From NCBI RefSeq assembly GCF_054482525.1, contig NZ_CM137006.1: a stretch of 64,000 nucleotides of DNA, one strand, 5' to 3'. Shown here in pieces: positions 2,717 to 19,065 of the stretch. A program made the translations under genes and the position numbers. Each line of letters opens with the position of its first letter. Within the stretch, counting starts at the first letter, position 1. The notes under the pieces were generated by a model. The model searched no databases. It saw only the letters and a program-made list of their open reading frames with translations, and was not told where the DNA came from.

Positions 2717-2952
2717 TTTTATGGATCACCTTTCTGATTGATTTTATATTGGCGAGGTAACGGGAGTTAAGTAGAATGGCTGCGGGTGCTTGAGGCTATC
2801 TGTCTCAGGCATGAACACCAAAGGCAGATAGAGAAAAGCCCCAGTTAACATTACGCGTCCTGCAAGACGCTTAACATTAATCTGAGGCTCAATCTATGAA
2901 CGGCAAATCTAGGTTAGCCTCTTACGTGCCGAAAGGCAAGGAGAAGCAGGCT

Positions 2953-3108
2953 ATGAAGCAGCAAAAGGCGATGTTAATCGCCCTGATCGTCATCTGTTTA
3001 ACCGTCATTGTGACGGCACTGGTAACGAGGAAAGACCTCTGCGAGGTACGAATCCGAACCGGCCAGACGGAGGTCGCTGTCTTCACAGCTTACGAACCTG
3101 AGGAGTAA
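2953..3108 (+). CDS. hokD: Hok/Gef-family type I toxin; in-frame Mok-like N-terminal extension begins at 2896
   Basis: MKQQKAMLIALIVICLTVIVTALVTRKDLCEVRIRTGQTEVAVFTAYEPEE (51 aa) matches Hok/Gef/RelF as recalled; GCTTGAGGC leader motif at about 2788-2800. Confidence 0.7.
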   Translation: MKQQKAMLIALIVICLTVIVTALVTRKDLCEVRIRTGQTEVAVFTAYEPEE

Positions 3109-3251
3109 GAGACCTGGCGGGGGAGAAATCCCTCGCCACCTCTGATGTGTCAGGCATCCTCAACGCACCCGCACTTAACCCGCTTCGGCGTTTTTTCCGT
3201 TGATTAACTCTAGTTATTAGAGAACCGAACTTTTATTGATGGGGCAGGGAG

Positions 3252-3644
3252 ATGAAGAAACTTGTTTTAGTCGCAGGTGTAATGATTGCAACAGTAATGT
3301 TGGGAGGGTGTGCAGCAAAGATCGATCCAGCGTTGAAAGCAGAAGCAATGAAGCCACTAACATGTAATGATGAAAAGCAATGTGACTTTTATTGGAAACG
3401 AGCGCAATTCTGGTTGGCTAATAATTCCTCATGGAAAATTCAAACGGCGACAGACACGCTAATTTCCACTTATAATCCCTCTCCAAATAGTCCATTCCTC
3501 GCTTATCAAGTGAGTAAAATGCCAAATGAAGATGGATCCTCAAGAATTTTCATCAAGCCTTTTTGCGATAATATGTTTGGCTGTCAACCAAACCCCTATC
3601 AGGCAGTTGTTTCCTTTAAAAACTTCGTTAAAACAGGGCAGTAG
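3252..3644 (+). CDS. Predicted lipoprotein of unknown function
   Basis: 130 aa; signal peptide with lipobox (VMLGGCAA); four further Cys; RBS ggga 7 nt upstream. Confidence 0.55.
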   Translation: MKKLVLVAGVMIATVMLGGCAAKIDPALKAEAMKPLTCNDEKQCDFYWKRAQFWLANNSSWKIQTATDTLISTYNPSPNSPFLAYQVSKMPNEDGSSRIFIKPFCDNMFGCQPNPYQAVVSFKNFVKTGQ

Positions 3645-3843
3645 TGTATAGCTTGGACGATAAATTATTAGTGAAAACGCCGTAAACCCTCACCCAATGT
3701 GGACTAAGTCTATCAAACATGACTGTGATGATTAGTCCGTAGTTGTTGTCTATGAAATCTGGATTGAGTCAGGGTTTAATCCAATAATTATTCTATCGTT
3801 CCTTTACAAGTCCGGTATATTACTTTCAGTTTGTTTTAGCATA

Positions 3844-3868
3844 CCCGCTTCGGCGGGTTTTGTTTTTT
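3844..3868 (+). terminator. Rho-independent terminator
   Basis: cccgcttcggcggg hairpin followed by a T-run. Confidence 0.5.
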
Positions 3869-3940: not shown

Positions 3941-4219
3941 ATGGCGCACGATACCAAATTACACAATTCTGATGATTCTGCCGTCTTTGCCAGCAGGCAC
4001 GGGCGGCGTTCCCGCACTTTCAAATCTGACTGGTTCCAGCATGACCCATGTACTGAAGAACAGGCCGAATGGCTAATTCATAACTATCGCAGACGCGGAT
4101 ACGAGATTAAGAAAGCCCTCAGCCTCGATTATCGTCACTGGATAATCTATGTCAGGCTCCCTTATTCCGAACGCCCACCGCGCCCATCCCGCACATACCA
4201 GCAACGGATCTGGAGGTAA
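3941..4219 (+). CDS. Hypothetical nin-region protein (possibly YbcO/DUF1364-like)
   Basis: ORF 3860-4219; internal Met at 3941 (MAHDTKLHNSDD...) chosen because a terminator occupies 3844-3868. Confidence 0.35.
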   Translation: MAHDTKLHNSDDSAVFASRHGRRSRTFKSDWFQHDPCTEEQAEWLIHNYRRRGYEIKKALSLDYRHWIIYVRLPYSERPPRPSRTYQQRIWR

Positions 4220-6328: not shown

Positions 6329-6393
6329 AAGGCATATATTTCATGCAAATCTGATATTTTGCCGATTTTGTACGTGATGGCAAAAGCAAACAA

Positions 6394-6418
6394 AACCCGC
6401 CCACAAGCGGGTTTTTTG
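6394..6418 (+). terminator. Rho-independent terminator downstream of Q-like gene (tR'-like)
   Basis: aacccgcccacaagcgggtt hairpin followed by tttttt. Confidence 0.55.
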
Positions 6419-6522: not shown

Positions 6523-6598
6523 GGCCCTTTAGCTCAGTGGTGAGAGCGAGCGACTCATAATCGCCAGGTCGCTGGTTCAAATCCAGCAAGGGCCACCA
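6523..6598 (+). tRNA. tRNA with CAT anticodon (Ile2/Met-type)
   Basis: 76 nt cloverleaf ending CCA; anticodon loop CTCATAA; close to E. coli ileX as recalled. Confidence 0.7.
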
Positions 6599-6599
6599 G

Positions 6600-6676
6600 C
6601 CGCCACTAGCTCATCAGGAAAGAGCGTCAACCCTTTAAGTTGAGTGTGCGAGGTTCGAGTCCCCGGTGGCGGTCCA
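6600..6676 (+). tRNA. Atypical tRNA-like gene (anticodon loop CCTTTAA, UUU with C33); possibly non-canonical or pseudo-tRNA
   Basis: 77 nt; acceptor CCGCCAC/GTGGCGG plus T-CCA; D-arm GCTC/GAGC; T-loop TTCGAGT; one A-C mismatch in T-stem. Confidence 0.4.
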
Positions 6677-6678
6677 GT

Positions 6679-6754
<76 letters not shown>

Positions 6755-6757
6755 TAT

Positions 6758-6832
<75 letters not shown>

Positions 6833-7757: not shown

Positions 7758-8291
7758 ATGAACGCAAAAATCAGATACGGCCTGTCGGCTGCCGTTCTGG
7801 CACTGATTGCCGTCGGTGCGCCCGCGCCTGATATTCTCGACCAGTTTCTGGATGAAAAAGAAGGTAACCACACAACGGCATACCGCGATGGTTCCGGCAT
7901 CTGGACCATCTGTCGGGGTGCCACGATGGTGGATGGAAAACCCGTTTTTCCCGGTATGAAACTGTCGAAGGAAAAATGCGACCAGGTCAACGCCATTGAG
8001 CGTGATAAGGCGCTGGCATGGGTGGAGCGCAATATTAAAGTACCACTGACCGAACCACAAAAAGCGGGTATCGCGTCATTTTGTCCCTATAACATTGGCC
8101 CCGGTAAGTGTTTTCCATCGACGTTTTATAAGCGGCTGAATGCTGGTGATCGTAAGGGCGCATGCGAGGCGATTCGCTGGTGGATAAAAGATGGTGGGCG
8201 CGATTGCCGCATACGTTCAAATAACTGCTATGGACAGGTTATTCGTCGTGACCAGGAAAGCGCATTAGCCTGTTGGGGAATAGATCAGTGA
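7758..8291 (+). CDS. R: SAR endolysin (T4-lysozyme-like, GH24)
   Basis: 177 aa; N-terminal hydrophobic signal-anchor-release stretch; catalytic motif [16 protein letters not shown]. Confidence 0.8.
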
Positions 8292-8755
8292 GCAGAGTCG
8301 CCGCGATTATTTATGCTCTGGTTATCTGCATCATCGTCTGCCTGTCGTGGGCGGTCAATCATTACCGTGATAACGCCATCACCTACAAAGAACAGCGTGA
8401 TAAAAAAGTCAGTGAGCTGAAGCAGCTGACCGCCACCATCGCTGACATGCAGCAGCGTCAGCGTGATGTTGCTGCGCTCGATGCAAAGTACTCGAGAGAA
8501 TTAGCCAATGCGAAAGCTGAAAATGAAACTCTGCGCGCTGATGTTGCCGCTGGTCGTAAGCGCCTGCGGGTCAATGCCAGTTGCTCCGCAGCCGTGCGTG
8601 AAGCCACCGGACCCACCAGCGTGGATAATGCAACCAGCCCCAGACTGGCAGACACCGCTGAACGGGATTATTTCACCCTCAGAGAACGGTTGATGACGAT
8701 GCAGAAGCAACTGGAAGGGGCACAGCTATACATTCGTGAGCAATGTCTCAGATAA
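8273..8755 (+). CDS. Rz: Spanin inner-membrane subunit (Rz-like)
   Basis: N-terminal TM segment, coiled-coil body, overlaps endolysin 3' end; Rz1 ORF embedded in +1 frame. Confidence 0.6.
8508..8693 (+). CDS. Rz1: Spanin outer-membrane lipoprotein (Rz1-like), embedded in Rz
   Basis: 61 aa; lipobox LVVSAC; proline-rich mature part. Confidence 0.7.
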
Positions 8756-19026: not shown

Positions 19027-19065
19027 GTCAACATAACCGCTTCGGCGGTTTTTTTCGTCCGGAGA

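Follow-up and report, generated by a model that had tools for sequence, protein, structure and literature searches.

We analyzed a 64,000-nucleotide (nt) stretch of contig NZ_CM137006.1 (NCBI RefSeq assembly GCF_054482525.1), hereafter called the window, and focused on the gene at positions 3252 to 3644, which encodes the precursor of a small cysteine-rich lipoprotein. The window is a lambdoid prophage with replication genes, a QueH gene, a hok/sok toxin-antitoxin locus, the lipoprotein gene, a gene for a protein of 92 amino acids (aa), a DUF968 gene, RusA, Q, four tRNA genes, lysis genes and tail genes. The lipoprotein gene is placed in the delayed-early operon, between the replication genes and Q. 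The adjacent hok named by the sequence-only reading of this DNA was confirmed, as the Pfam HOK_GEF model matched positions 2896 to 3108 (E 3e-23), with the open reading frame (ORF) from 2896 forming a mok-like extension, and the Rfam sok model matched as listed below. The hok/sok locus beside the lipoprotein gene is complete and intact. The features of the locus are as follows.

2749-2777, plus strand: promoter-like site TTGGCG-17-TAGAAT, candidate hok promoter, immediately before the part that gives the hok mRNA (9 of 12 consensus positions matched)
2784-2958, plus strand: hok/sok regulatory region (Rfam RF01794, sok; 110 bits against a gathering threshold of 59, E 3.4e-25, full model length)
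2953-3108, plus strand: hokD toxin coding sequence, 51 aa (WP_000813254.1 in the identical RefSeq locus)
3178-3196, plus strand: left copy of the 13-base-pair (bp) repeat ACCCGCTTCGGCG (3178-3190) and a T-run, corresponding to the hok terminator with its 3' stem half lost (GCGGG has become GCGTT)
3191-3251, plus strand: cassette leader of about 60 nt, with a decayed TGnTAGGAT remnant and a conserved ribosome-binding region, TTTTATTGATGGGGCAGGGAG; aligned with the leaders from Enterobacter, Pantoea and others
3252-3644, plus strand: lipoprotein precursor gene, 130 aa; signal peptide 3252-3308, Cys20 codon 3309-3311
3645-3842, plus strand: AT-rich 3' spacer of 198 nt; E. coli variants lack 69 nt or 104 nt
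3843-3868, plus strand: intrinsic terminator, ACCCGCTTCGGCGGGT then TTTGTTTTTT; right copy of the repeat at 3843-3855; -13.1 kcal/mol, z = -3.5
3941-4219, plus strand: conserved prophage gene of 92 aa, with the DUF968 gene next to it downstream (as annotated by RefSeq in the identical locus); homology resumes here in insert-free prophages, and the gene marks the right edge of the cargo slot described below

The ATG at 3252 is the earliest possible start of the lipoprotein ORF, because an in-frame TGA lies at 3237-3239. The precursor begins with MKKLVLVAGVMIATVMLGG followed by C, which comprises a positive n-region, a hydrophobic core of 14 residues and a lipobox, L-G-G-C, at Cys20; with its MKK / LVLVAGVMIATVM / LGG-C20 layout, the N-terminus qualifies as a lipoprotein signal. 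Gly at position -2 of the lipobox is rarer than Ala, Ser or Thr, and LGGC was seen in other family members too. Among the ORFs of the 64-kb window, 3252-3644 alone passed the strict lipoprotein-signal pattern, besides three spurious frames. The ORF, its lipobox and the four further cysteines (C38, C44, C105, and C111) that had been read from the sequence were all confirmed. These four cysteines are invariant in 12/12 orthologues. Across 68 diverse relatives (31 to 83% identity), C38, C44, and C105 never vary, and at least 90% of these relatives have C111. A lipobox following a hydrophobic stretch was found in at least 123 of the 147 family representatives. The residue at +2 is Ala in the window lipoprotein and in 97 of the 123 lipobox-bearing members and is Asp in none of the 123; since it is mostly Ala and never Asp, the lipoprotein is probably sorted to the outer membrane. 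The mature part is an alpha+beta domain of about 111 aa that carries the four cysteines in two Cys-x5-Cys loops, the second of which (C105/C111) holds a conserved CxNMFGC motif.

The protein is identical to RefSeq WP_000737634.1, annotated as a "hypothetical protein" in a 100%-identical locus, and it matches phrog_16082, to which no function is assigned there, over its full length. The ratio of nonsynonymous to synonymous substitution rates (dN/dS) of the gene is 0.04 to 0.22 overall, with 0.22 within E. coli and about 0.1 between genera, where synonymous sites are saturated. These ratios exclude a chance ORF and establish that the gene is real and under strong purifying selection. The ribosome-binding site is weak or poorly spaced. 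The earlier description of a spaced site is loose, as the best Shine-Dalgarno-like match, GGGAG (3247-3251), touches the ATG with zero spacing and only a weak GGGG (3241-3244) lies at the normal 7-nt distance.

We found that bases 3191 to 3855 form a 665-bp insert that carries this one gene and sits in the hok terminator hairpin. The insert is bounded by the perfect 13-bp direct repeat (3178-3190 and 3843-3855), which occurs in exactly two perfect copies in the 64 kb, against an expectation of 0.12 matches even when one mismatch is tolerated. This repeat corresponds to the hairpin of the hok terminator. The right copy is the intact terminator, which directly follows hok at the empty site, and the left hairpin folds at -3.3 kcal/mol versus -13.9 kcal/mol at the empty site (compared with L002, positions 629-660). 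A crippled left hairpin was seen in 49/49 E. coli copies from viral contigs with enough upstream sequence. An empty prophage (ECONIH6) aligned across the site with exactly 665 bp missing, and the full segment was recovered from 249 of the 5,426 complete E. coli genomes compared (∼5%), whereas hok-containing prophages are nearly universal. The G+C content of the insert is 38% (gene, 38 to 40%) compared with about 50% in the flanks, and that of the lipoprotein gene is below its flanks in 12/12 family contexts. The insert is a cargo cassette, or moron, of the prophage. This result upholds the proposal of a prophage-encoded accessory lipoprotein in the form of a moron-type gene that is absent, with its insert, from collinear prophages. 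The moron concept is reportedly that of Juhala 2000 and of Cumby 2012 (HK97 gp15). Of the attributes listed by Juhala/Hendrix, the cassette shows absence from collinear relatives, a deviant G+C content, and a terminator (the displaced hok one); a promoter of its own, active in the repressed prophage, was not found at the window locus by consensus search, the one kind of search applied.

The same slot contains rem (K-12-type Qin) or a different unannotated cargo of ∼460 bp in other prophages. The position just after the hok terminator is thus a cargo-exchange site of lambdoid prophages, being either empty or filled with rem, the ∼460-bp insert, or the lipoprotein cassette (loci L002, L003, and L004). 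Some E. coli copies have additional DNA 5' of the cassette, namely an insertion sequence (IS) end 7 bp before the ATG (L013, positions 1-331) or extra DNA of ∼1.35 kb (L032) or ∼0.4 kb (L039) between hok and the leader. On the other side of the gene, the 3' spacer (3645-3842) was considered as a small RNA or structured element and rejected, with no Rfam match, a fold z of -0.92, and large natural deletions. Because 69 or 104 nt are naturally deleted and no significant structure was found, the spacer appears dispensable and is probably junk.

The sequence-only reading had taken a strong terminator immediately downstream as a sign of an independent transcription unit. The terminator is real (3843-3868, -13.1 kcal/mol) but lies 199 nt past the stop codon, whereas relatives carry their own terminators 19 to 47 nt past the stop. 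A consensus scan detected no sigma-70 promoter-like site between hok and the ATG, including the leader (3191-3251). A sigma-E-like GAACTT in the leader was dismissed by eye, as it varies among the cassettes and a -10 element at the proper distance is missing. Among the orthologous cassettes from other genera, those of L008 and L064 have a leader of ∼60 nt behind a hairpin that is intact, CCCGCTTCGG(C/T)GGG and a T-run. The leaders of L008, L064, and L005 contain TGnTAGGAT, a candidate extended -10 element, and those of L006 and L010 contain GTTAC(A/C)-17-TATCAT instead. The E. coli element aligned to TGnTAGGAT reads AGtTATTAG, and GTTAC(A/C)-17-TATCAT is decayed or absent. The E. coli cassette thus seems to have lost its own promoter and its insulating upstream terminator. 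Given the lack of a recognizable promoter, the crippled hairpin upstream, and a downstream terminator that is the hok terminator moved by the insertion, cotranscription with hok is more likely than an independent unit at the window locus. In a lysogen, the lipoprotein gene would most likely be transcribed by read-through from the constitutive hok promoter (candidate at 2749-2777), and during lytic growth, it would be part of the delayed-early transcript; termination would in either case be at the displaced hok terminator (3843-3868). The locus displays a form of cargo wiring that combines insertion into the hok terminator hairpin, apparent promoter loss, and probable read-through from a toxin-antitoxin promoter.

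This arrangement also touches hok, whose translation is normally controlled by 3'-end processing of its mRNA. In carriers of the cassette, the hok mRNA probably gains a 3' extension of ∼665 nt, which could alter this processing. The Hok protein itself is identical in carriers and noncarriers of the cassette (WP_000813254.1).

The E. coli copies lack a promoter-like element, their 3' spacer is variable, their ribosome-binding site is poorly spaced, and one copy has an IS end 7 bp 5' of the ATG, all of which would suit a hitchhiking or decaying passenger that is now functionless in E. coli. The selection data make this explanation very improbable, because dN/dS is 0.22 within E. coli and ∼0.1 between genera. 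Furthermore, the ORF is intact in essentially all of the ∼50 viral-contig copies and in the 249 complete genomes.

To place the gene among its relatives, we used a profile search of 1.84 billion representatives, with clusters defined at 50% identity. The family comprises 1,140 clusters at E ≤1e-3, which is a lower bound, and 532 at E ≤1e-10. The 68-sequence alignment was too diverse for the pattern search of loci, and narrower alignments were used for locus retrieval. Members occur in environmental Burkholderiales, Alphaproteobacteria, Shewanella, Pantoea, and the fungal endosymbiont Mycetohabitans, and also in Enterobacter, Salmonella, Citrobacter, Acinetobacter, and many metagenomic lineages. 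All E. coli copies are in the hok slot, including those of the induced phages vB_EcoS-689R5 and vB_EcoM-606R7. A tblastn search of 50,697 phage records returned only two E. coli phages, both with the hok-slot cassette.

Other phage copies lie in two further settings. At least seven are in tail modules, where they adjoin the tape-measure gene, gpM, gpI, or gpJ and are followed by a terminator wherever examined. The Pantoea copy lies between gpI and gpJ, the Enterobacter copy is between the tape-measure gene and gpM, and those of L010, L063, and L064 belong to small moron islands (with Fic, YafO, Bro, or a second lipoprotein) just before gpI-gpJ. The L125 copy precedes a J-like gene, the L068 copy is beside a tape-measure-like gene together with an Mrr-type nuclease, and several copies adjoin the gene for the NlpC/P60-type tail protein gpK. 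In three lineages, the gene is directly behind, and co-oriented with, the CI repressor gene (helix-turn-helix [HTH] plus Peptidase_S24). The order in L069 is cI, lipoprotein, orf107, terminator, and then a TTGACA-17-GATAAT promoter, a layout that reproduces the position of rexAB behind cI in lambda. One more copy follows an HTH regulator gene in an element that also carries a diversity-generating retroelement and encodes a VapE primase, and a PDZ-fused form shares its island with an integrase and a restriction-modification system.

The family also travels outside phages, with 144 matching plasmid records. WP_032201349.1 (41% identical) is almost the sole cargo of ColRNAI (ColE1-type) plasmids of 2.5 to 4.6 kb from Citrobacter, Salmonella, and Enterobacter, and on Acinetobacter plasmids of ∼110 kb, the domain is fused behind LysM. 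In the integron of Shewanella plasmid pNi1-3, the gene is the first of four cassettes, beside intI. GTTAGGC and an attC site (GCCTAAC...GTTAGGT) mark its boundaries, and every cassette is followed by attC-like repeats. This spread over phage, plasmid, and integron vehicles is unusual. By eye, and uncomputed, the cI-linked copy in L123 (4995-5381) and the small-plasmid copy in L130 (1504-1884) look roughly 80% identical; if this value holds, it would indicate a recent exchange of the gene between a phage immunity region and a plasmid.

These contexts bear on when the product acts. The window gene lacks a recognizable promoter and forms part of the delayed-early operon, with the replication genes on one side and Q on the other; in Enterobacter and L064, where the late operon holds the gene, an intact terminator upstream insulates it. 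Both arrangements would suit a role restricted to the lytic cycle, with transcription only from antiterminated early or late operons, in which the protein keeps progeny off debris or modulates lysis. We consider this role improbable because the members on 2.5-kb ColE1-type plasmids and in an integron have no lytic cycle. In addition, the copies co-oriented directly behind cI are in a lysogen-expressed operon, and the prophage already has spanin genes, Rz (8273-8755) and an embedded Rz1-like gene (8508-8693). Identity with the o-spanin Rz1 was rejected on the latter ground and on the distance of the gene from the lysis cassette, 4.6 kb in the 5' direction.

The family contexts instead fit a product that lysogens make and that benefits the host. 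Expression in lysogens is suggested by the phage copies, which occupy slots known for lysogen-expressed protective genes, behind cI and at the tail tip. A stand-alone host-protective factor is suggested by the presence of the gene as a single selected unit on phages, tiny plasmids, and an integron. The role in superinfection exclusion or lysogenic conversion proposed in the sequence-only reading is thus a sensible guess to which the contexts lend support. By analogy with known moron lipoproteins, we favor, with a probability of roughly 45%, a single-gene envelope factor that protects the host by superinfection exclusion, through a block of phage adsorption or DNA entry. The mature domain would sit in the periplasm, on the periplasmic face of the outer membrane, stapled by the disulfides C38/C44 and C105/C111. 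There, it would bind a conserved outer membrane or periplasmic component needed by incoming phages, and perhaps by colicins, and such binding would block adsorption or DNA entry in the manner of Cor or Llp, via an unrelated protein.

Precedents for exclusion are Cor, Llp, and HK97 gp15 (PMC3594210; bioRxiv 2022.06.28.497910), of which Cor and HK97 gp15 are moron-encoded exclusion proteins (PMC3594210). The window lipoprotein resembles Cor in being a small, predicted outer membrane lipoprotein from a moron of a temperate siphophage; its expression, too, would benefit the lysogen (PMC3594210), and orthologues of its gene are located in the tail cluster, as is cor. It differs from Cor by a larger mature domain (∼111 aa) with four cysteines, by the absence of covariation with J, and by its occurrence on plasmids and in an integron. 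The Cor family (phrog_1119) was rejected as a relative, the match (E 0.0088) covering only residues 1 to 43, i.e., the signal peptide, with no stretch passing. The Cor protein of phi80, N15, HK022, and T1 is a superinfection exclusion lipoprotein that inactivates FhuA. Llp of T5 binds the periplasmic side of FhuA, is stabilized by a disulfide, and is not known to need a partner gene. Llp is a plausible mechanistic model for the window lipoprotein, from which it differs in being about half the size, in coming from a virulent phage, and in having its gene next to that of the T5 receptor-binding protein. No Llp chain was among the Protein Data Bank (PDB) sequence or fold matches listed. For the lipoproteins Lpp021 and Lpp010 of the mEpimmI coliphages, whose genes are in the structural gene cluster of these temperate phages, exclusion of OmpA- or LamB-dependent phages was demonstrated by experiment (PMC11893012); the window lipoprotein has no homology to them detectable by tblastn in the 50,697 phage records. 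As for HK97 gp15, the likeness is that of an extra gene of deviant G+C content, absent from collinear relatives and bounded by a terminator, and the tail-operon copies of the family lie at similar junctions. gp15 differs in being an inner membrane, YebO-related protein, and the window cassette in having no recognizable promoter and in borrowing the hok terminator.

Several points weigh against superinfection exclusion as the function. The mature protein is 70 to 84% identical in the prophages of E. coli, Enterobacter, and Pantoea, yet the C-terminal, receptor-binding regions of the J proteins of these prophages are unrelated. This lack of covariation weakens a Cor-style model in which the lipoprotein masks the receptor of its own carrier. 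Should the lipoprotein act in exclusion, it would probably target a conserved part of the envelope or step of entry, since the lipoprotein was kept across phages with unrelated receptor-binding proteins. The protein has no sequence or fold relation to Cor, Llp, Bor, or any PADLOC defense model, and no paper mentioning WP_000737634 was found in the literature. Regarding expression, the ribosome-binding site of the gene is weak or badly spaced, and the read-through model rests on predicted hairpin stability and the lack of a consensus promoter, with a nonconsensus promoter being possible.

The lipoprotein could also be a lysogenic conversion factor unrelated to phages, conferring serum or complement resistance, adhesion, or tolerance to envelope stress, as do Bor/Iss or TraT. 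We regard such a role as unlikely, albeit worth weighing. Lambda Bor/Iss belongs to the same gene class, being a small lipoprotein encoded by a prophage moron and expressed in lysogens; its genome position and size are unlike those of the window gene. Many of the fully matching E. coli genomes are from poultry and human isolates, and the occurrence of the gene as solitary cargo of plasmids and of an integron would fit any trait beneficial to the host. Against this explanation, the spread to Burkholderiales, Alphaproteobacteria, Shewanella, Pantoea, and Mycetohabitans does not suit a trait specific to animal hosts, and the recurrent sites beside tail-tip genes or behind cI are classic positions of phage exclusion genes. 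Membership in Bor/Iss (PF06291) or TraT was rejected, with no Pfam match for the window protein or its 68 relatives.

Some relatives carry the same domain in fusions that tether it to peptidoglycan (LysM) or join it to PDZ. In all, we observed fusions to a C-terminal PDZ (Alphaproteobacteria and others), an N-terminal DUF4124, and an N-terminal LysM (P0034, P0101, P0103, P0134; P0065; L133, 3776-4345); the LysM form has an ordinary signal peptide in place of the lipobox and a 9-residue insertion in the second Cys loop. These architectures would also be compatible with a periplasmic inhibitor, or orphan immunity protein, directed at an incoming cell wall enzyme or toxin, such as a phage tail lysin, lysozyme, type VI amidase, or bacteriocin. 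Indeed, the LysM-fused Acinetobacter members swap the lipid anchor for peptidoglycan binding and others add a C-terminal PDZ; both architectures put the domain next to the cell wall or into a periplasmic role in protein binding, and several family copies are beside the gene for the NlpC/P60-type gpK. The two short Cys-x5-Cys loops, one of them with CxNMFGC, recall the inhibitory loops of lysozyme inhibitors, a resemblance that we counted in favor of this explanation. We nevertheless find an inhibitor rather unlikely.

The homology and structure searches outlined for this protein yielded a large family but no match to Cor, Llp, Bor, or PADLOC. No model in Pfam, NCBIfam, or PADLOC (PADLOC-DB v2, 0 families) matched the window lipoprotein; among the 68 relatives, Pfam returned no family except a spurious DUF6491 match in two, and a sequence-profile search of the PDB gave only noise (E >0.6). 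In an AlphaFold2 model based on 12 orthologues, the mature part has a pLDDT mostly >90 and consists of a helix, a short strand, a long helix, a four-stranded sheet, and a C-terminal helix. Its fold neighbors are KA1, the N-terminal domain of BamC, and Flpp3 (DUF3568), with 9 to 15% identity, Foldseek E values ≥0.01, and TM-scores <0.5. The likeness to these three is at the fold level only, and the Cys-x5-Cys loops are specific to the lipoprotein family. Membership in the BamC N-terminal domain or DUF3568 families was rejected in the absence of homology beyond the fold and of any Pfam match. The 90%-identity cluster that holds the window protein (1,137 members) also lists many Hok proteins, which looks like an artifact of partial or fused gene calls spanning both genes and makes the cluster names untrustworthy.

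A moron-encoded outer membrane lipoprotein is a known kind of gene; the family itself is uncharacterized and has no curated model. It is doubtful that the window lipoprotein is the founding member of a large unrecognized family of broad envelope protection factors against phages and possibly bacteriocins, with a mechanism unlike those of Cor and Llp. If it does block phage or colicin entry, it would add a new family to the few receptor- or entry-blocking lipoproteins and would be relevant to host range in phage therapy. The gene is small, has no partner gene, and is found in ∼5% of complete E. coli genomes. Among the main reservoirs of undiscovered genes for phage resistance or host fitness are the prophage morons and integron cassettes that have no assigned function; integron cassettes of this kind have been shown to encode phage defense (10.1101/2024.07.02.601719).

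We made several additional observations on morons of this type. In two prophages from the viral-contig collection, L063 (6374-6784) and L064 (6332-6679), the lipoprotein gene runs into the start of another lipoprotein gene (phrog_890, "lipoprotein," or phrog_914) to which it is unrelated. The two directly precede gpI-gpJ and belong to a moron island that also has a gene for a YafO-type toxin or a Bro-N/antirepressor. In the window, positions 19035 to 19055 contain a near-identical UUCG-loop hairpin terminator, AACCGCTTCGGCGGTT plus T7, between the tail chaperone and tape-measure genes; HK97 carries its gp15 moron at the junction of these two genes. The same type of hairpin bounds the cassette in Enterobacter (L008) and in L064, and half of one is left in L063. 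Such UUCG-loop hairpins may serve as microhomology for moron exchange.

Elsewhere in the window, positions 6344 to 6417, a short way 5' of the tRNA genes, gave a weak, subthreshold match to the Salmonella prophage small RNAs isrK and isrJ (22 to 24 bits, E 0.09 to 0.25). The early region just 5' of hok encodes a homologue of epoxyqueuosine reductase QueH (2030-2716; Pfam E 1e-65), which is a phage-borne tRNA/queuosine modification gene, and four tRNA genes (Met/Ile2-type CAT, Lys, Thr, and Gly) follow the Q antiterminator gene at positions 6523 to 6832.

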